In this document: in pieces, positions 2,492-27,242 of the stretch
Layout of the letters: every line of letters begins with the position of its first letter
Position numbering within the stretch: position 1 is the stretch's first letter
Assembly (NCBI GenBank): GCA_964455275.1
Contig: CAYVVO010000012.1
Span: 1 to 34,406 of the forward strand
Source of the DNA: an uncultured Candidatus Bathyarchaeia archaeon
GTDB lineage: Archaea > Thermoproteota > Bathyarchaeia > Bathyarchaeales > Bathyarchaeaceae
Direction: 5' to 3'
Length of the DNA stretch: 34,406 nt
Program-made: the position numbers and the translations under genes
Notes under the pieces: model-generated
Told to the model about the DNA's origin: nothing
The model's database searches: none
What the model saw: only the letters and a program-made list of their open reading frames with translations

Positions 2492-3418
2492 TCACCAAAT
2501 TATGCCCATTTTTACTACGATATCACCAAAATATGGCTGACCGACTGCAACATCAACAATTTTATCGTTTTGCGGTTCTATGTAAATCAGTCCGATGTCA
2601 GTGGTGTTGAAACAGGCTATTGCATGGGCGCTATCATCAAATTCGATGTAAACGAAACCGCATCTGTAACCCATCTGAAACGCGTTGGTGTTGAAGTCGG
2701 CTGTGAAATCGTAGCAAACATAATCTGGAGTATACTCGTTTTCGTTTGTTCTATCTGAATTTATGAAGGCAATCGCCTCGGCATATGTTGGGTCCCTAAT
2801 GTACCAGCCGCTTCCAGCCCCATCCTCCACACCTTGAGCATACCCCGCATCATAGCCGGCTTGGTAGCTTTCAATCACCTCATTTTCTAATGACGTGATC
2901 TCAGTTTGGAGGCTTGTAATGTTGGCTTGTAACGTTGAAACTTGGTTTTCAAGAGCGGTTTTTTCGTTATTTAGTGAAGTAACTTCAGATTGGAGACTTG
3001 CTACTTGAGCTTCCAGAGCAACCTTATCGTTGTTCAATGAAGCTATTTCTGATTGGAGATCTGAGATGTTAGATTGCAAATTTGAAACTTGTGTTTCTAG
3101 TGTGCTCTTTTCGTTTTCTAGTGCAGTCACCTCAGTTTGGAGGCTTGTAATGTTGGCTTGTAACGTTGAAACTTGGTTTTCAAGAGCGACTTTCTCATTG
3201 GTCAATGAAGCGATTTCCGATTGGAGACCTGAAATGTTAAATTGTAAATTTGCTACCTGCGCTTCTAAACTAAACCTTTCATCTTCAAGTCCAGAAATCT
3301 GATCTGCTTTCATCTGCAGTTCATGGTCTTTCTGGTTAACCGCCATTACAGCTCCAGCAACTGCAACACATAGAACAACGCAAATCAAACTGAGCGCTAC
3401 GATTTTCTTATCAATCAT
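2492..3418 (-). CDS. membrane-anchored coiled-coil stalk protein with C-terminal transglutaminase-like (Cys/His) domain
   Basis: The ORF track gives 2492..3697, but its first 93 codons run across the tRNA at 3550..3626. The ATG at 3418 starts MIDKKIVALSLICVVLCVAVAGAVMAV (TM anchor). About 190 aa of LQSEI(A/T)SL.NEK..LE.QV repeats follow. The globular end contains YVCYDF...SAHAIACF...IEPQND. Confidence 0.75.
   Translation of the reverse strand: MIDKKIVALSLICVVLCVAVAGAVMAVNQKDHELQMKADQISGLEDERFSLEAQVANLQFNISGLQSEIASLTNEKVALENQVSTLQANITSLQTEVTALENEKSTLETQVSNLQSNISDLQSEIASLNNDKVALEAQVASLQSEVTSLNNEKTALENQVSTLQANITSLQTEITSLENEVIESYQAGYDAGYAQGVEDGAGSGWYIRDPTYAEAIAFINSDRTNENEYTPDYVCYDFTADFNTNAFQMGYRCGFVYIEFDDSAHAIACFNTTDIGLIYIEPQNDKIVDVAVGQPYFGDIVVKMGIIW
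2900..3188. repeat. exact 58-bp direct repeat (2900..2957 and 3131..3188, offset 231 bp = 77 codons) inside the coiled-coil CDS
   Basis: Both copies read ctcagtttggaggcttgtaatgttggcttgtaacgttgaaacttggttttcaagagcg. Flanking units are degenerate copies (gattggagac... recurs). Confidence 0.95.
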
Positions 3419-3549
3419 TACGCATTTCCTCCAAACCACTGAAATACATGATTCCTTACGAAACAATATATACGCTTCGCAACCTGAAAACCTTTCTATC
3501 CTCAAACAGCACCAAAATCTAACATAAAAACAGGGGTCCACCGCAAGAA

Positions 3550-3626
3550 TGGAGCCTCGGGCGGGATTTGATCCCGCGACCAACAGCTTACGAGGCTGCC
3601 GCTCTACCGGGCTGAGCCACCGAGGC
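3550..3626 (-). tRNA. tRNA-Thr (anticodon CGU), CCA encoded
   Basis: Identical to the tRNA at 49..125 at 76 of 77 positions. The only difference is anticodon position 34 (loop CUCGUAA). A T-run (TGTTTTTATG) follows downstream. Confidence 0.9.
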
Positions 3627-3822
3627 GTTTCCAGTGAATTGATTCCATAACACATTTTTAAGACGTTCGGGGGGCAAACAAGCCCCTGCAGAGGCATCCA
3701 TGAAATCCTCTGTTATGTTCCTGAAATAAATAATGATTGTGGAGCATTCGATGTTTGTGTATGTGGCTGCAGCGTCTACACGCCTATGAAGTCAAGAAGT
3801 TGGCGTTCCCTCTGTATGGGAC

Positions 3823-5487
3823 TCATTTTTTGTCTGCCTTCATGAAGAAGAAAAGAATCACTCCAATTATGGCGGCTGCGGCTATCACTGCTACAATCAG
3901 TACTATTATGGAGAAGTCTGGTTGCGGAGGCTCTGCCCCCTCGGCTATGGTGAAGTAAACTGTTTCAGACGTTCCAGTTTTTCCATCTGTATCCTCTGCG
4001 TAAAGTGTTATTCTGTGCTCGCCATAAGCTAGGTCGGATAACTTTATGTCTTCAGTGATTGTGACGTTTGCTTGGTCGTCTAGGCTGTATTTTATCCATG
4101 AGGTTGTTTTGCTCACGGTGAATTTTAAGGAAACAGAGTTTACTGTGTATGTCTTGTTTTCTGGTGAATCAATGAAGATGGCGGGGGGGCTTCCATAAGG
4201 CATAAGCGGAAAATTGTCTTGGTTGTTCTGGTTAATAATGTAAGGCGTATCTCCTAATTCGTCGCTGCCTGTCTGGTTTCGGCTCGCTCCGCTCCTCGCA
4301 TCGACACCCGTATAGTCGCTCCAATAATTACCGCCTACAGGATAGCCAACATCCCAGGTGTTTATTGAGACCGCTACAGAATAGTTTTCCCCACTAACAT
4401 CGTAAACCTGTATCTTGTTATCGATAAAATAGTTGCCTCTAATCATGTTATATGAGGACTCCATAAAGCCGATTCCAACGTTGTTGTCTGTTATGTTGTT
4501 TAGCATAATGGTGTTTTGGAGAGAGTTGAAGAGGAAGATGCCATCTGCGCCGTTAGTTATAACATTTGTAGATATGCTGTTAAGGTTTGAAGCGTTACTG
4601 AACTGTATTCCTCTCTCGTTGTCTGTTATGTTGTTTGTACTAATGTAGTTGTCGGAAGACGCAAAGAGTCCTATTCCAGAGTAATTGTCCGTTATCTGAT
4701 TTTCATATAATGTCGACCCTGTTGTGTAAGCCAATAGTATGCCATGCCCATTGCCGGTGAGTTCCAGATGATGGACTGTTATGTTTTTGCAGTTCACGAG
4801 GGCGAGATAACCTACATCTGGAAAAGTGACCGAATTTATGACCAGATTACTTTCGCTAATCAGATAGTAGACTTTTTTGCCGTTGACTGTGTTTGAATTA
4901 TCAATTTCATTATCGAAGTGTGAAGGCTCGTCGCCATAAACCGCGAGATTATAATTATTGTCCATTTTGTTGTCTCTAAGTATATTTTTTGAAGACAAGA
5001 AGATGTTGATACCTATGCCGTTGTTTGTTATGTTGTTTCCAGTAATGGTGTTTTGTGAGGCTTCGTTAAGGTAGAGACCATAATTGTTGTGTGCTAAGGT
5101 GTTTCCAGATATGATGTTTTGTGAAGCGCCCTCAAGGTAGATACCGTAAAAGCTGAATCCTATTTGTAAGTTCTTGATTGTCACGTTGTTTCTGTACGAC
5201 AGGTCTATTCCTCTTTCTCCTTGTCCTGAAAGATAGTAGCCTGCGCCATCAACTACAATGTTATTACGTTGAACTACAAGATAGAAACTGTCAATGTTAT
5301 CTGTGAAGGTGTAGATGTCTCCAGCCTGTTGAATAGGAGCTGTAGTATTTGTTGAAGTGACAATGCTTCCATCACTTAAAATGTAAATGAATCCCTCAAT
5401 ATCTTGTGAGTTAACGGGCTGAGTGTTAACTGCACATAACGAAATTATGGTTAAGACAACTAGAAAAATAACCTTACTTGTGTTCAC
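3823..5487 (-). CDS. secreted right-handed parallel beta-helix (NosD/PbH1-like) repeat protein with C-terminal TM anchor
   Basis: GTG start is preceded by GGGAGAGG. Signal peptide MNTSKVIFLVVLTIISLCAVNT. Many N-x-I-x-x-N beta-helix rungs (NNITNNGIGI, NNITDNERGI, NNITDNNVGI). GNYWSDY...DNFPLMPY module. Tail PQPDFSIIVLIVAVIAAAAIIGVILFFFMKADKK. Confidence 0.85.
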   Translation of the reverse strand: MNTSKVIFLVVLTIISLCAVNTQPVNSQDIEGFIYILSDGSIVTSTNTTAPIQQAGDIYTFTDNIDSFYLVVQRNNIVVDGAGYYLSGQGERGIDLSYRNNVTIKNLQIGFSFYGIYLEGASQNIISGNTLAHNNYGLYLNEASQNTITGNNITNNGIGINIFLSSKNILRDNKMDNNYNLAVYGDEPSHFDNEIDNSNTVNGKKVYYLISESNLVINSVTFPDVGYLALVNCKNITVHHLELTGNGHGILLAYTTGSTLYENQITDNYSGIGLFASSDNYISTNNITDNERGIQFSNASNLNSISTNVITNGADGIFLFNSLQNTIMLNNITDNNVGIGFMESSYNMIRGNYFIDNKIQVYDVSGENYSVAVSINTWDVGYPVGGNYWSDYTGVDARSGASRNQTGSDELGDTPYIINQNNQDNFPLMPYGSPPAIFIDSPENKTYTVNSVSLKFTVSKTTSWIKYSLDDQANVTITEDIKLSDLAYGEHRITLYAEDTDGKTGTSETVYFTIAEGAEPPQPDFSIIVLIVAVIAAAAIIGVILFFFMKADKK

Positions 5488-11805: not shown

Positions 11806-11868
11806 GTAAAGTTTTCTTGACAAGACTTGGTCAAGGTTTCTTGACTAGATTGGTCAAGTTTTCTTGAC
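11806..11868. promoter_or_regulatory. array of three 16-bp palindromes GTCAAG-N4-CTTGAC, 23-24 bp phasing
   Basis: Units are 11806-11821 GTAAAGTTTTCTTGAC, 11830-11845 GTCAAGGTTTCTTGAC and 11853-11868 GTCAAGTTTTCTTGAC. The proximal unit is 49 nt from the ATG at 11757. Confidence 0.6.
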
Positions 11869-12043
11869 AAAAACGCTTTTCTTCCCCTTCGAGTAGAAAC
11901 ATGGACTGATGGCTCCAACACAGGAAATGAAACTCACCAAAAGTAAGTTGCTTTACAAGTTTCATTTTTCATTCCCCAAATGCCTGTGTAGGAGCCTCAG
12001 CAAACTCCATCATTTTAAGCTCATGAACAGCTTTTGGAAGCAG

Positions 12044-17723: not shown

Positions 17724-19175
17724 CTATGGAGTTGAACGGAATAGCCTCTTTTTTACGATTATTGCAGATAAAGTAGCCATCAAGAATAAGGGCAAGATAA
17801 TCCATGAAGGAAACTCTGGAATTGCATCCGTTCCAATTATTTCTACTGTTTTGATGCGGTGCTGGTAAGTAAAGTATAGGTAGGTGTTGTTTGCTTCTTC
17901 GTTGACTGCTGGAGCTACCGAGGTGCCATCGACCAAAACAGTCCAGTTGCCTTCTGAATGTAACAGGTCTTTTGGTATTGTTACTCTGCAGAATCCTGTT
18001 GTTCCGGTTTCGCCCTCCACATTAAACCGCACTAGAGCAGTTTCAGGGTTGAAACTGAAATCTGAAACAGTTGAGTTACTCATAACATTAACACCATAAC
18101 TAGTCCCTTCCCATGTACCAGCATCAAAGAATGTGATTGGAGCCATGAGTGGGTAATTGTCCCTGTTGTTCTCATTTATGATGTAAGAAGTATCTCCTAT
18201 TCCATCTCCGTCACTGTCGGTTCCGTTGTAATCGCTCCAATAGTTGCCTTCTAGACCGTTATCCCAGAAATTACGGGATAAGCCAGCACCGGCGTTGTGA
18301 GCATTGTTAATAAAATTGTTATGATAGAAAGTGTTGTTGACTGCGCTAGAACTCAAACTCACTCCCATTCCCTCATCAATTTCGGGAATATTATAATTCA
18401 TTATGTAGTTATCATGAAAAACATTGTTAGTGCCATGATAACCAATAGCGATGACAAAAGGACCGCCGTAGTTTTCTCCGTTCATTATGTTTCCTGAAAA
18501 CGTATTATGAGAACTCGTATCCCCAGAACTGGTCATTGAGAAGCCAAGACACGTATTGTTATGTATCACATTTGAATTTGAAAACCGTAAATAGATATAC
18601 TCGTTAAGGACGGTGTTTCCGACAATAGTATTGAATGAAGAGTTCCTTAAACTAAATCTGTAATTTACTTTATTTTTGTTGATGTTGTTATTCGAACCAA
18701 TCAGCGTTATGCCTTTTGTTATGGTACAATTGATTATTTGAGTTCCGTTTCCCATCACGAGAATTATCCCACCGGGTTTAGGCGCAAGTGTGAGATTCGT
18801 TAGTTTGATATTGTTGGCATTGATTTCGATGGCATTTGCATAACTATAGAATGCTTGCATAGTTATCCATGTGACATTGTATGCTGGATGTAGGTTAATT
18901 ATTGTGTTTTCGGGGTTTTCGCCTATAATTGAGATTGTTTTGTTGATAAGTATGGTTTGATTTATAGGGCCTTCATAGATTCCGTTTCTAACGAAAATAG
19001 TATCGCCATCCTCAATAACTCGAATAGCTTCTTGAATAGAAGAATAATCGTCTGGAACAATAAGGGTCTTAGCTTCTGCTTTTGCAGTAAAGTTTTGTGA
19101 AATAGATGCCAGAATAAAGGAAAGAACCAGCAATAACACAATTATTGCTTTGGTTTTCTTTATATTAGAAAGCAT
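17724..19175 (-). CDS. secreted parallel beta-helix (NosD-like) repeat protein with PEF-type C-terminal anchor
   Basis: Signal peptide MLSNIKKTKAIIVLLLVLSFILASISQNFTAKA. SIQEAIRVIEDGDTIFVRNGIY. Beta-helix rungs. GNYWSDYNGTDSDGDGIGDTSYIINENNRDNYPLM. Tail IPEFPSWIILPLFLMATLSAIIVKKRLFRSTP. Paralogous to 3823..5487. Confidence 0.85.
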   Translation of the reverse strand: MLSNIKKTKAIIVLLLVLSFILASISQNFTAKAEAKTLIVPDDYSSIQEAIRVIEDGDTIFVRNGIYEGPINQTILINKTISIIGENPENTIINLHPAYNVTWITMQAFYSYANAIEINANNIKLTNLTLAPKPGGIILVMGNGTQIINCTITKGITLIGSNNNINKNKVNYRFSLRNSSFNTIVGNTVLNEYIYLRFSNSNVIHNNTCLGFSMTSSGDTSSHNTFSGNIMNGENYGGPFVIAIGYHGTNNVFHDNYIMNYNIPEIDEGMGVSLSSSAVNNTFYHNNFINNAHNAGAGLSRNFWDNGLEGNYWSDYNGTDSDGDGIGDTSYIINENNRDNYPLMAPITFFDAGTWEGTSYGVNVMSNSTVSDFSFNPETALVRFNVEGETGTTGFCRVTIPKDLLHSEGNWTVLVDGTSVAPAVNEEANNTYLYFTYQHRIKTVEIIGTDAIPEFPSWIILPLFLMATLSAIIVKKRLFRSTP

Positions 19176-19216
19176 AACAACCTGTTTTATGGTGAATATA
19201 AGGTAAAAGTTTTTTT

Positions 19217-19256
19217 GTCAAATTTTCTTGACTAAATTTTGTCAAGATTTTTTGAC
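19217..19256. promoter_or_regulatory. array of two 16-bp palindromes of the same GTCAAG-N4-CTTGAC family, 24 bp phasing
   Basis: Units are 19217-19232 GTCAAATTTTCTTGAC and 19241-19256 GTCAAGATTTTTTGAC. The proximal unit is 42 nt from the ATG at 19175. A TATA-like TTATAT lies between them. Confidence 0.6.
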
Positions 19257-19360
19257 AACAAGTATATGTTGATTTTATTGTTCTGTATAAAAAAGGTAAC
19301 AGATATTTAGGATCAGAAAAAGAAGGGATAATTGTGGTGGTTTTGTGGTTGCTAGGGTTA

Positions 19361-24180: not shown

Positions 24181-24963
24181 ATGGTGACAGTTTCCTCGAA
24201 TCTGATACAATCTCATCTGAGCGAGCCAAAGGTTGAGCAGATGTTTCGGTTAATGGAAACGGATTTGGAGATCCAGAATACTCTCCGTATGTCCAATGTA
24301 ATGGCTGTTGAACGTTTGAAATACAATGACCACGGTCCGGTCCACTCCAAAATCACTGCCGGAAGCGCCCTCGAAATTTTTAACCTCTTAATTCAGGAAG
24401 TCACGCCTACAACGGTCCAAAACAACGTTTGCTCTCTTGAAGACGCCAAAGTTGTTGTCTTATGTGGGTCATATCTGCACGACTTGGGGAACAGCATTCA
24501 TCGGCTCGACCATCATTTCCATGGCTGCGTGATAGCCAACCCCATCTTGGACAGGCTTCTGAAGAAGGTTTATCCCGAAGAGCCGGCTTTGGCGGTGAGG
24601 CTGAAGTCTGAGATACTGCATTGCATTTTTTCTCACGAAGATGAAGTTGAGTGTTTAAGCGTGGAGGCTGGGGCGGCGAAGGTAGCTGATGGAACGGATA
24701 TGGCTCGGGGAAGGACCAGAATTCCTTACAGAAGCGGCAAGGTGGACATCCACTCGCTCTCCGCTTTATCCATCACCAAGGTGGAAATCGAGAAGGGAAA
24801 ACGGAAGCCTGTTCAAATCTTGGTTAACATGGATAATCCTGCGGGCGTCTTCCAGATAGAAGAAGTGCTGGAGAAGAAGCTGGAAACTTCGGGCATACAT
24901 GATTTGGTTGATGTTATAGCCTTAGAAAAGGGAGTGCAGATAAGAAGAAAAAAAGTTTACTAA
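24181..24963 (+). CDS. HD-domain metal-dependent phosphohydrolase
   Basis: HGPVHS, GSYLHDLGNSIHR, FSHED and ADGTDM follow the H...HD...H...D pattern. GGTGA lies 8 nt before the ATG. Confidence 0.7.
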   Translation: MVTVSSNLIQSHLSEPKVEQMFRLMETDLEIQNTLRMSNVMAVERLKYNDHGPVHSKITAGSALEIFNLLIQEVTPTTVQNNVCSLEDAKVVVLCGSYLHDLGNSIHRLDHHFHGCVIANPILDRLLKKVYPEEPALAVRLKSEILHCIFSHEDEVECLSVEAGAAKVADGTDMARGRTRIPYRSGKVDIHSLSALSITKVEIEKGKRKPVQILVNMDNPAGVFQIEEVLEKKLETSGIHDLVDVIALEKGVQIRRKKVY

Positions 24964-24992: not shown

Positions 24993-25219
24993 ATGTCTCC
25001 TAAGCTAGATTTTGTTTGTTTTTGTTTATAGATTGCGGATATGAATGTTCTAACAGTTTGCTGCTTCATATCAGGAGCCTAATAAAGGTTCATTGTTGAA
25101 AACAGTCTTTTTTCTGAGAAACCGCAACCATCTTACTTAAAAGTCGATTTTTAGACGGTGTTGTGCTTAGAAGGGAGTTAAATCATAAAAAAACAGATCA
25201 AGTTGTTTTGTGGTCTGTT

Positions 25220-25288
25220 TCACCATTCCTCGTCTTCATCATCTTCTTCATCCTCGTCTTCATCTTCTTCCCAGTCTTCTTCCTCCAT
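25220..25288 (-). CDS. 22-aa ultra-acidic micro-ORF MEEEDWEEDEDEDEEDDEDEEW (candidate small protein)
   Basis: GGGAGGTG lies 10 nt upstream of the ATG. The TGA is followed at once by hairpin AAACAGA-N16-TCTGTTT and a T7 run (25187..25220). It was too short to appear in the ORF track. Confidence 0.4.
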   Translation of the reverse strand: MEEEDWEEDEDEDEEDDEDEEW

Positions 25289-25381
25289 CAAACATTTTCA
25301 CCTCCCTATCCTTTGTGCTTCACCATCAATGTCTTTGAGAAATCACATAAAAGATTCAAATAAGCATTACGCAGAAAAAAC

Positions 25382-25909
25382 CTACATCCGCCCAAGCCTG
25401 CTCTTTGCTTCTTCCAAAGTTTTTTCTATCTTCTCCCAGTGCGCCCCCCGCCAATACACCTGACCGCACCCCGGACACTTCCAAAAATCATCATAATACA
25501 TAGATGTTGCCTCAGGAATCTCATCAACCACCACCCCCTTAGACACAGCCTCAATTCTGGCATTACATTTGGGACAACGAGAATCACTCAAATCAATCTC
25601 CAACATAAAACCGAACCGCCCAGCCAAATCAGCAAGTTTCCCAGCTTCATCCGTTGCCTCAACCAAAACCGCATCCAGCCCACGAGCCACAGCCTGCTGA
25701 TACAGTTCACGGTCGCGGGTAAGCAGAACCCGCTTCTCAGATTTCGCCAATTCAACAAGCTTTTCGTCGTCAGCAGACCGGAAATAATTGACGTCGTGCC
25801 CCAGCATACGAAGCCAACGGGTTAATTTGCCCAGCATGCCATCAGCTATGAACCTCAAAACCGACAACCAAACACTACTAGCAACAACATAGAATTTAAC
25901 AGTGACCAT
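25382..25909 (-). CDS. Mut7-C (DUF82) PIN-like RNase domain protein with C-terminal zinc ribbon
   Basis: RFIADGMLGKLTRWLRMLGHDV, VLLTRDREL, and CPKCN...CPGCGQVYWRGAHW. Confidence 0.85.
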   Translation of the reverse strand: MVTVKFYVVASSVWLSVLRFIADGMLGKLTRWLRMLGHDVNYFRSADDEKLVELAKSEKRVLLTRDRELYQQAVARGLDAVLVEATDEAGKLADLAGRFGFMLEIDLSDSRCPKCNARIEAVSKGVVVDEIPEATSMYYDDFWKCPGCGQVYWRGAHWEKIEKTLEEAKSRLGRM

Positions 25910-26078: not shown

Positions 26079-27242
26079 ATGAGAGTTTACATGGACTACG
26101 CCGCAACCACACCCGTTGACCCCAGAGTATTCAAAGCCATGAAGCCCTACTTCAGCGAAAAATACGGAAACAGCGTCTCCCTACACAAACAGGGCAGAGA
26201 AGCAAAAGAGGCACTAGAAGAATCCAGAAAAACAATCACAGAAATGATGAACGCCAAACCCAACGAACTCATATTCATGGGCAGCGCCACCGAATCCACC
26301 AACATGGCACTGAAGGGAATAGCCTTCGCCAACAGAAAAAAAGGAAAACACATAGTGACATCCAAGATAGAACATCACTGTGTGCTCGAACCTGCCCGAT
26401 GGCTAGAAAAACAAGGATTCGAAATCACTCGCCTCCCAGTAGACAAATATGGATTCATCGACACAAACCAATTAGAAAAGGCGATAAGAAAAGACACAAT
26501 CTTAGTCTCCATAATGCACGCCAACAACGAAATAGGCACCATCCAAGACATCGAAAAGATAGGGAAAATCTGCAAAGAAAAAGGCGTATACTTTCACTCT
26601 GACGCAGCCCAAAGCTTCGGCAAAATTCCCATTGACACCAAAAAAATGAGCATCGACTTGTTATCCATCAGCTCCCACAAGATGTACGGACCCAAAGGGG
26701 TCGGCGGACTCTACATACGGAAAGGCACAAAAATTGACCCACTTCTCCACGGAGGAGGACACGAATTCAGAAAACGTTCATCAACAGTAAACGTTGCCGG
26801 AATTGTCGGATTCGCCGAAGCAACCAGAATCCAAAAAAAGGAAATGGCTTCCGACGCCAAAAACCAGACTGCCCTCAGAGACAGGCTGATAAACGAACTG
26901 CTGAAAATAGAAGATGCGCAACTTACAGGACACCCAACAAAAAGGCTGCCCAACAACGCCAGCTTCTGGTTCGCTTACATCGAAGGAGAATCACTGCTCA
27001 TGCAACTAGACATGAACGGCGTATCCGCCTCCACAGGCTCAGCATGCTCCTCTGAATCCCTAGAAGCAAGCCATGTATTGCTGGCTATCGGACTGAAACC
27101 CCAGGAAGCTCACGGGTCCCTGAGACTATCTCTGGGAAAATACACCACAAACGAGGATGTTGATTACGTTCTGGAAGTAGTGCCAAAATCGGTTGAACGT
27201 TTAAGACAGATCTCGCCCTTCAAGAAAGGCTGGAAACAGTAA
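26079..27242 (+). CDS. cysteine desulfurase (class V aminotransferase, NifS/IscS-like)
   Basis: VYMDYAATTP, the PLP lysine in SSHKMYGPKGVGGLY, and the active-site loop SASTGSACSS. Confidence 0.9.
   Translation: MRVYMDYAATTPVDPRVFKAMKPYFSEKYGNSVSLHKQGREAKEALEESRKTITEMMNAKPNELIFMGSATESTNMALKGIAFANRKKGKHIVTSKIEHHCVLEPARWLEKQGFEITRLPVDKYGFIDTNQLEKAIRKDTILVSIMHANNEIGTIQDIEKIGKICKEKGVYFHSDAAQSFGKIPIDTKKMSIDLLSISSHKMYGPKGVGGLYIRKGTKIDPLLHGGGHEFRKRSSTVNVAGIVGFAEATRIQKKEMASDAKNQTALRDRLINELLKIEDAQLTGHPTKRLPNNASFWFAYIEGESLLMQLDMNGVSASTGSACSSESLEASHVLLAIGLKPQEAHGSLRLSLGKYTTNEDVDYVLEVVPKSVERLRQISPFKKGWKQ

Follow-up and report, generated by a model that had tools for sequence, protein, structure and literature searches.

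A conserved gene for a 23-residue acidic peptide next to a stand-alone MUT7-C gene in Candidatus Bathyarchaeia

Can a triplet repeat that spells out little but aspartate and glutamate be a gene, and if so, what would its product do? The question is raised by a stretch of 34,406 nucleotides (nt) from an uncultured Candidatus Bathyarchaeia archaeon (GenBank assembly GCA_964455275.1, contig CAYVVO010000012.1), in the following referred to as the window, in which a short open reading frame (ORF) of extreme acidity lies on the minus strand downstream of a gene of the Mut7-C family. An earlier note, made from the letters of this DNA, had described a stand-alone ORF of 22 codons, MEEEDWEEDEDEDEEDDEDEEW, equipped with its own ribosome-binding site and terminator, and had suggested that the encoded peptide might form a toxin-inhibitor-like pair with the adjacent PIN-like protein. 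Comparison with related loci gives a firm answer to the first part of the question: the acidic ORF can with high confidence be regarded as a real coding gene under purifying selection, which is maintained next to Mut7-C. The second part concerns the mode of action of the peptide and its partner, for which several explanations of unequal probability have to be weighed.

The acidic reading frame and its conservation

The comparison comprised 59 related loci, which were gathered around homologues of Mut7-C; owing to this anchoring of the sampling on Mut7-C, all figures on co-occurrence are one-sided. The genomes nearest to the window are metagenome-assembled genomes of Candidatus Bathyarchaeia, and DNA of the window recurs in metagenomes from salt-marsh and marine sediment. 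The same acidic frame is found just 3' of Mut7-C in about 48 related loci, in which the identity of Mut7-C spans 62-100%, and begins there 90-160 nt past the Mut7-C stop. Across these loci the ORF occurs in 27 distinct DNA versions, which encode 23 distinct peptides. Every locus with a Mut7-C identity of at least about 66% and enough downstream sequence carries the frame, and it is also present in some loci at 62-63% identity (L016, L056).

The peptides conform to the consensus M-[MIVF]-EEEDWEED-x(7-10)-[EG]DEEW-stop. In the alignment (A1), E4, E5, D6 and W7 as well as D20, E21, E22 and W23 are invariant and residue 2 is conserved as a hydrophobic one, while the centre of the peptide is acidic but variable and admits K, T, V, Y or G. 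The ORF measures 63, 66, 69 or 72 nt in the 27 versions, lengths which are all multiples of three and correspond to 20-23 sense codons. In four metagenomes with co-occurring strains, a deletion of 3 nt is the sole indel of the tract. A free variation of repeat length of the kind expected from a microsatellite, which the earlier note had considered, is hence not seen.

Substitutions follow the reading frame just as closely. In the N- and C-terminal blocks of the alignment, which are free of gaps, bases that deviate from the consensus make up a fraction of 0.005 at the first, 0.021 at the second and 0.15 at the third codon position, and 1, 4 and 12 of 14 columns, respectively, are variable there. 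At about ten codons either Glu or Asp is fixed and only synonymous exchanges, GAA for GAG or GAC for GAT, take place, and both Trp codons read TGG in 27/27 versions. A stop codon stands immediately behind the last Trp in 27/27 versions as well, namely TGA in 19, TAA in 6 and TAG in 2 of them, and this interchange is that of a maintained stop and not of a His or Tyr codon. The check which the earlier note had recommended, conservation of the acidic frame in relatives with nonsynonymous changes being rare, is thus borne out.

At the same time, the tract repeats GAN imperfectly (TRF: period 3, 77% matches), and the further open frames which the earlier note had listed are indeed present in the window. 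On the sense strand, the +1 frame is closed in 25/27 versions and the +2 frame in 27/27, and the basic frame MKTRMKK was rejected as a candidate since it is closed in 25/27 relatives. On the antisense strand all three frames are open, which results from the complement of GAN being devoid of stops, but a conserved start, end and length are all wanting: many lineages have no start codon, the ends of the antisense ORFs range from within the tract to 199 nt past it, and the Ser frame is interrupted in L020. The antisense poly-Ser and hydrophobic frames were rejected for their lack of conserved ends and start and for the preservation of Asp-versus-Glu identity; the poly-Ser frame is excluded because the roughly ten sites with fixed Asp or Glu would be four-fold degenerate there.

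A long antisense ORF was observed on the minus strand of one related locus (L014 3302..4705; also in L044), where a convergent ORF for a membrane protein of 467 amino acids (aa) crosses the peptide gene. It uses the hydrophobic frame (...LPFFIFIVFVVIVVFFPIFLF...), ends about 37 nt past the end of the Mut7-C match and is open through the tract because the complement of (GAN)n contains no stop codon.

With regard to composition, the statements of the earlier note on the minus strand were all verified, including the share of Asp or Glu in MEEEDWEEDEDEDEEDDEDEEW (19/22 residues) and the position of the two Trp codons. The complete peptide of 23 aa, whose start is derived below, has a computed net charge of about -19.5 and a mass of about 3.0 kDa, is made up to over 80% of Asp/Glu from residue 3 onwards, contains neither Cys nor a tryptic site and ends in Trp, the two tryptophans being 16 residues apart. 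If about 0.066 of random codons are taken to be GAN, a rough estimate from base composition that was not computed from the window, 19/22 acidic residues are expected about 1e-14 times in DNA of the size of the window; chance therefore does not explain the acidic ORF. Sequence searches with the peptide gave no match in Pfam, NCBIfam or PDB; for Pfam, hmmscan was run with E-values up to 10 and returned 0 families, although the composition filters of HMMER may mask weak matches. A degenerate DNA pattern of the peptide had 0 matches in viral contigs.

In the window (25223..25909, minus), the peptide ORF shares the reading frame of Mut7-C, with four stops in between. This is a coincidence, because the differences in spacer length among relatives are not multiples of three, and read-through or an extension of Mut7-C was rejected on account of both the four in-frame stops and this spacer behaviour.

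Start codon and expression signals

The ATG from which the earlier note had read the ORF does not hold as the start. At its position the relatives have ATT (15 versions), ATG (6), or ATC, GTT, GTG or TTT, whereas the preceding codon is TTG, GTG or ATG in every version, and the conserved start is therefore the TTG at 25291, one codon upstream, which yields a product of 23 aa. On the other hand, the proposed ribosome-binding site, GGGAGGTG at 25306..25299 followed by a spacer of 10 nt to the ATG, was confirmed. The octamer GGAGGTGA occurs once in the 34-kb window when both strands are searched. None of the 30 ORFs examined has a longer Shine-Dalgarno match, and the runner-up comprises 5 nt. In nearly all lineages the start lies 6-9 nt after GGAGGTG(A); in L014/L045 the distance from the Shine-Dalgarno sequence is 12 nt, and an in-frame GTG is nearer.

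The peptide gene is missing from the public annotation of six contigs (L001-L006) on which both the peptide and the Mut7-C protein agree fully with those of the window. The sole call, a hypothetical protein of 29 aa (L057 1327..1416), begins at an ATG further upstream, in overlap with the Shine-Dalgarno sequence, and probably uses the wrong start. The gene thus provides a clean case of a conserved gene that escapes standard gene callers.

Between Mut7-C and the ORF, the earlier note had pointed to a T-run and a TTTTATG box. Both are present, the latter at 25351..25345, but the block that is conserved is TTTTCTGCGTAATGCTTATTTGAATC, not TTTTATG. This block starts 4 nt past the Mut7-C stop, resembles upstream motifs of other genes of the window, e.g. 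CGTAAACGGTATAAAT before 22866, and can be read as a putative promoter composed of CGTAAT, similar to a transcription factor B recognition element (BRE), and the TATA-like GCTTATTTGA. The transcript would then start near the conserved TCTCAAAGA at 25340..25332, and, on the basis of general archaeal promoter architecture, a leader of about 40-45 nt would follow from the spacing between promoter and start codon.

Both genes are followed by oligo-T runs, which act as terminators in archaea in general. T-runs occur at the same place directly behind Mut7-C in relatives, and the T6 run of the window is likely the terminator of the Mut7-C transcript, as is the T7 run that of the microprotein transcript. 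In 30/31 distinct contexts a run of at least five T is found at 20-38 nt past the peptide stop. The earlier note had combined the T7 run with a hairpin, and of this proposed terminator the T-run stands as a conserved element, but the hairpin, which is present in the window, is confined to the window's own lineage. It is absent from all other lineages compared, and with an energy of -5.6 kcal/mol against -3.0 +/- 1.8 kcal/mol for shuffles it is no more stable than shuffled sequence; the hairpin is specific to this lineage and probably has no function. RNAalifold found no consensus pairs around or after the ORF, so that a structured 3' untranslated region was rejected as a candidate. A downstream C/D-box small RNA was discarded likewise, its sole Rfam match being snoR53 with 21.7 bits and E = 2.1, far under the gathering score.

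Taken together, the characterization as a stand-alone small gene is upheld: the ORF possesses a ribosome-binding site of its own, and both the promoter-like block upstream and the oligo-T run downstream are conserved. Since a T-run follows the Mut7-C stop and is joined by the promoter block, the sequence argues for a transcription of the peptide gene apart from Mut7-C, with read-through from Mut7-C as the alternative. The coordinates of all features are compiled in Table 1.

Table 1. Coordinates of the peptide gene, its signals and its neighbours in the window
Feature	Position	Strand or orientation	Remark
Microprotein ORF, 23 codons + stop	25220..25291	minus	encodes M-MEEEDWEEDEDEDEEDDEDEEW; same frame in ~48 loci
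Conserved start TTG	25291..25289	minus	one codon 5' of the ATG of the earlier note
ATG of the earlier note	25288..25286	minus	
First invariant Trp codon	25271..25273	minus	residue 7 of 23 aa, within invariant EED-W core
C-terminal invariant Trp codon	25223..25225	minus	stop directly after
Stop TGA	25222..25220	minus	
Shine-Dalgarno GGGAGGTGA	25298..25306	minus	conserved in alignment; 6 nt (25297..25292) before TTG
Promoter-like block TTTTCTGCGTAATGCTTATTTGAATC	25353..25378	minus	best-conserved non-coding block of intergenic alignment
T6 run	25375..25380	minus	directly 3' of Mut7-C stop; T-runs at same place in relatives
T7 run	25187..25193	minus	29 nt past peptide stop; conserved T-run
Hairpin AAACAGA-N16-TCTGTTT	25191..25220	minus	arms 25220..25214 and 25197..25191
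Stand-alone MUT7-C protein (PIN/TOPRIM-like + Cys4 zinc ribbon)	25382..25909	minus	upstream of peptide; PF01927
Mut7-C stop TAG	25384..25382	minus	
Class-V aminotransferase, NifS/IscS-like cysteine desulfurase	26079..27242	plus, divergent	PF00266, E = 1.8e-89
HD-like protein	24181..24963	convergent to peptide gene	

A further conserved element lies downstream of the gene. It is an AT-rich core at 25067..25130 on the minus strand of the window (in a broader sense about 25066..25192), which reads TTTTCAG-AAAAAA-nnCTG-TTTTCAACAAT-N6-TATTAGGCTCCTAATATG and contains a TATTAGG/CCTAATA palindrome. The core sits 84-97 nt past the peptide stop in most peptide loci and 50-150 nt past it in three loci. 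Apart from the peptide gene it is found 2.5 kb away in L012 (7145-7200), and L057 has a second copy (3920-3973), which is located upstream of a flavodoxin-like gene. Metatranscriptome contigs (X25) match the core, for which no consensus RNA structure was found, and which resembles a promoter or operator motif more than a part of the peptide gene.

Linkage to Mut7-C and possible modes of action

The identification of the upstream gene as Mut7-C was verified by Pfam, whose profile PF01927 matches over its full length (positions 2-145/146) with E = 1.8e-46 and a score of 158.3 bits against a cut-off of 23.3. Among 51 homologues, the zinc-ribbon cysteines C112, C115, C145 and C148 do not vary, and D23, the acidic residue that comes first behind strand 1, is kept in at least 90%. 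The AlphaFold2 model of the protein is confident, with a pLDDT (predicted local distance difference test) of 89; its confidence is low for residues 1-9, for which reason the true start of Mut7-C probably lies downstream of the annotated ATG. In Foldseek searches with this model, the PIN proteins 3I8O and 1O4W come out on top with weak scores (E ~0.01-0.02) and no match reaches E <= 0.001, the match to the C-terminal domain of MUT-7 (8Q66_A) being weak, too (E = 0.038, TMq 0.45, 146 columns). PF01927 is listed as 'function unknown', and only the first of the PIN-type acidic residues is generally conserved (PMC5499597). According to the sole structural study, MUT7-C combines a TOPRIM-like fold with a Cys4 zinc finger and has an RNA-binding role; the animal domain takes part in the binding of RNA, and a stand-alone MUT7-C protein of Thermococcus is predicted by AlphaFold3 to engage RNA through a highly positive surface (PMC11347159).

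In most loci the genes are arranged in the block NifS - Mut7-C - peptide. NifS is missing from the 3-kb flank in L017, L018 and L027 and is 2.4 kb off in L038, and in all of these the peptide still follows Mut7-C. On the downstream side, the HD-like neighbour is restricted to the lineage of the window and L052, the place being taken in other lineages by KaiC-like, TRAM, ferredoxin-like or thermosome/RpoK genes or by convergent genes, one of which (L012) ends 20 nt past the peptide stop. A sugar epimerase and UPF0147 are further neighbours in the window. The adjacency to Mut7-C, to which the earlier note had drawn attention, is hence kept in every peptide locus found despite changes of NifS or of the downstream neighbour, and the linkage appears consistent within the clade.

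For the gene and its product the following account is proposed. Transcription would proceed from the BRE/TATA-like promoter of the gene itself and stop at the oligo-T run, and translation in vivo would start at the TTG behind the strongest Shine-Dalgarno sequence of the window. The resulting peptide cannot fold alone because of its 23 aa and its net charge of about -19.5. By analogy, a hydrophobic residue 2, the EED-W motif, an acidic variable centre and the C-terminal DEEW constitute the pattern of a charge-binding disordered ligand with aromatic anchors, and binding through disordered acidic segments with anchoring Trp residues is established for DSS1 (PMC9381478). The free peptide would act in trans by aligning its carboxylates along a basic surface that normally binds nucleic acid, where its two Trp side chains would serve as anchors, and it would either compete with RNA or DNA or shield the surface. 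Such an action as a polyanionic binder in trans is considered rather probable. With respect to the partner, genomic linkage points to the adjacent MUT7-C RNA-binding protein, which would be the likeliest one and nevertheless a doubtful one. The account as a whole, i.e. an independently expressed gene for a disordered polyanion of 23 aa whose binding to a basic surface would occur in trans and whose likeliest partner would be MUT7-C, is put forward tentatively, its probability falling slightly short of an even chance.

Several observations weigh against this account. Linkage over 90-160 nt is weak evidence of a functional tie because genes at such a distance stay linked by inertia, and seven Mut7-C loci of 62-67% identity, which belong to another genomic context and feature a convergent zinc-ribbon gene downstream, are without the peptide within 3-4 kb. 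The Mut7-C protein of the window is slightly acidic overall (isoelectric point 5.8-6.2), and the net charge of Mut7-C, which ranges from -3 to +10 across relatives, is unrelated to the presence of the peptide. Among longer Mut7-C homologues no fusion with the peptide was found, their extensions being N-terminal start-site artefacts. As for expression, none of the RNA runs searched contains the stretch, and the metatranscriptome contigs found leave the ORF uncovered: one set (X25) touches the acidic tract solely via low-complexity matches of 35 nt, and another (X26-X28) covers part of the Mut7-C gene of a relative at a depth of 2-4 with the peptide uncovered. Finally, N-terminal Asp/Glu runs abort translation in bacteria and eukaryotes through intrinsic ribosome destabilization, and proteomes are reported to avoid sequences of this kind (PMC12340396). 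The yield of full-length peptide is uncertain for this reason.

Aborted translation might also be part of the mechanism. In a more specific version of the proposed account, the peptide would be a minimal 'RNA mimic' on the positively charged RNA-binding face of MUT7-C, an ancient stand-alone protein, and synthesis of the peptide would be gated by the tolerance of the ribosome for the Asp/Glu run (e.g. through Mg2+). This version is improbable; if true, the peptide would represent the first natural regulator of a prokaryotic MUT7-C, and through the two partners the processing of RNA would be tied to the cell's ionic or translational condition. Independent thereof, the strict conservation of the peptide within an archaeal clade asks how archaeal ribosomes handle Asp/Glu runs or whether they exploit abortion. 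Moreover, a linked candidate partner offers an experimental handle on the functionally unassigned stand-alone MUT7-C proteins of prokaryotes (PMC11347159, PMC5499597), and, should the peptide indeed bind a basic surface, hardly any smaller polyanion would be known from nature as a competitor or chaperone.

A translated polyanion may also serve a partner other than MUT7-C, either the cysteine desulfurase of the NifS/IscS type or, as a general chaperone or shield, proteins of high basicity, for instance those of ribosomes or chromatin. IscX and CyaY are small acidic proteins that act on a basic patch of IscS, and the usual gene block brings NifS close to the peptide. In addition, an own promoter would imply that the peptide is not obligatorily co-expressed with Mut7-C, and the missing relation between Mut7-C charge and peptide presence would be in line with another partner. 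On the contrary, the peptide stays by Mut7-C in the four loci in which NifS is at least 2.4 kb away or off the flank (L017, L018, L027, L038), and the sequence offers no pointer to a specific alternative. Another partner is therefore judged somewhat unlikely.

Alternatively, the ORF could be a cis-acting translational sensor, in which the Asp/Glu run destabilises the ribosome as in MgtL or the Trp-stop sequence arrests it as in TnaC; the outcome would control termination or the fate of the RNA, and the peptide would be a by-product. TnaC is an arrest peptide with a Trp-dependent arrest at the stop codon. A Trp at the last sense codon together with a Trp 16 residues earlier recalls arrest peptides, a T-run lies 20-38 nt past the stop, and N-terminal Asp/Glu runs are the known trigger of destabilization (PMC12340396, citing Chadani 2017 and Ito 2022). 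However, the downstream gene is not conserved, its identity varying by lineage; the next gene of the window is convergent, and the one of L012 ends only 20 nt past the stop. Neither was a conserved RNA structure found around or after the ORF, nor is the conserved DNA core further downstream bound to the peptide gene, given its detached position in L012 and its second copy in L057. Furthermore, destabilization needs no fixed identity of Asp versus Glu. A role as a sensor in cis is thus quite improbable.

The pairing of a PIN-like RNase toxin with an acidic inhibitor, as suggested by the earlier note, fares worse and is very improbable. It would be in keeping with the conserved adjacency, and COG4634, PIN_10 and PIN_16, which belong to the same PIN-like group as Mut7-C, are predicted toxins (PMC5499597). 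Yet the latter source lists PF01927 itself without a function, and nuclease activity of the MUT7-C domain is not demonstrated (PMC11347159). Gene order, spacing, domain content and distribution all depart from those of a type II toxin-antitoxin pair: the small gene lies downstream, the gap of 90-160 nt holds a T-run and a promoter-like block, the peptide of 23 aa has neither a DNA-binding module nor a domain match, and the genes form a stable block with housekeeping-type genes over 62-100% identity instead of a patchy or mobile one, some Mut7-C homologues being without the peptide nearby. Scarcely credible, at last, is a non-coding triplet microsatellite or a real gene in the antisense poly-Ser or hydrophobic frame, for which the imperfect period-3 repeat, the three open antisense frames and the 467-aa ORF across the tract of L014 might speak, but which is contradicted by the 20-23 sense codons with indels always in multiples of three, by the retention of Asp versus Glu at about ten codons that a poly-Ser frame would let vary, by antisense starts that are often missing, scattered ends and the broken Ser frame of L020, and by start, stop, Shine-Dalgarno sequence, promoter and T-run, which all suit the acidic frame.

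Other elements of the loci and comparison with known systems

Acidic Trp-rich sequence was also observed at another gene of the related loci. The longest ORFs for homologues of the RNA polymerase subunit Rpo6/RpoK in L011 (6620..6940), L022 (4468..4776) and L028 (4919..5227), all on the minus strand, show acidic Trp-rich N-terminal extensions (MVEWEEWAEWEWD..., MVEWAEWECPQAQE...). The homologue of L055 was called at 77 aa, and the extension may accordingly be untranslated. It is of the same acidic-plus-Trp kind as the peptide, and there may be no relation to the peptide gene at all.

In the window itself, a tRNA-Thr(CGT) gene at 3550..3626 (minus) lies inside the 5' part of an ORF of 401 codons (2492..3697) on the same strand, the true start of which is for this reason located further downstream. 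Tandem repeats of 23 nt, AAGTTTTCTTGACAAGACTTGGTC, are found in 2.6 copies at 11809..11870, and similar repeats, CTTGACAA / GTCAAGAAAA, occur upstream of two minus-strand genes, including the one at 17724..19175 (repeats at about 19180..19280); these repeats look like repeated operator sites. A tandem duplication of 66 nt at 5020..5149 (2.0 copies, 78% identity) is situated within the ORF 3823..5487.

With regard to known systems, the peptide shares with DSS1/Sem1 the small size, the disorder and the dense Asp/Glu tracts with conserved Trp anchors, and in DSS1 it is the acidic residues and Trp that determine binding (PMC9381478). DSS1/Sem1 mimics DNA on BRCA2 and RPA and binds subunits of the proteasome lid as well as ubiquitin. 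It differs in being a eukaryotic protein of 70-90 aa with a C-terminal helix and a Trp pair 2-3 residues apart, whereas the peptide comprises 23 aa and has its tryptophans 16 residues apart, one of them at the free C-terminus. The DSS1/Sem1 profile PF05160 gave no match in the Pfam hmmscan (E up to 10), and homology is not claimed.

A second parallel exists with LysW/ArgW, very small amino-group carrier proteins of prokaryotes or archaea with an acidic Trp motif, the tail EDWGE of which resembles the EEDWEE of the peptide (EDWGE in L011). LysW docks by charge on basic enzyme surfaces. In contrast to the peptide locus, which has none of these features, LysW possesses an N-terminal zinc ribbon and a terminal Glu attachment site and is accompanied by the ATP-grasp protein LysX.

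The leader peptides MgtL and TnaC are comparable in length (24 aa in TnaC), in an N-terminal acidic run, in a critical Trp and in a terminator soon after the stop, the destabilization in MgtL being driven by Asp/Glu and Pro. These leaders, however, precede the regulated gene in one transcript and act via alternative RNA structures or Rho, whereas neither downstream gene nor RNA structure is conserved at the peptide locus. VapBC systems (type II, with PIN toxins) resemble the locus insofar as a small gene adjoins a PIN-like gene, and differ from it in gene order, spacing and transcription signals, the locus having no DNA-binding antitoxin domain and a stable synteny.

Finally, the cysteine desulfurase effectors IscX and CyaY/frataxin, which are small and acidic, and protein mimics of nucleic acid such as Ocr and ArdA dock a carboxylate-rich surface on a basic patch of an enzyme or of a protein that binds nucleic acid, and a desulfurase gene is located two genes from the peptide. 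These proteins are folded and comprise 66-120 aa or more, while the peptide is too short for this and shows no sequence similarity to them. By analogy, the peptide would therefore act most like the small disordered acidic binders exemplified by DSS1, the LysW tail and IscX-type proteins, and is a member of none of these families.

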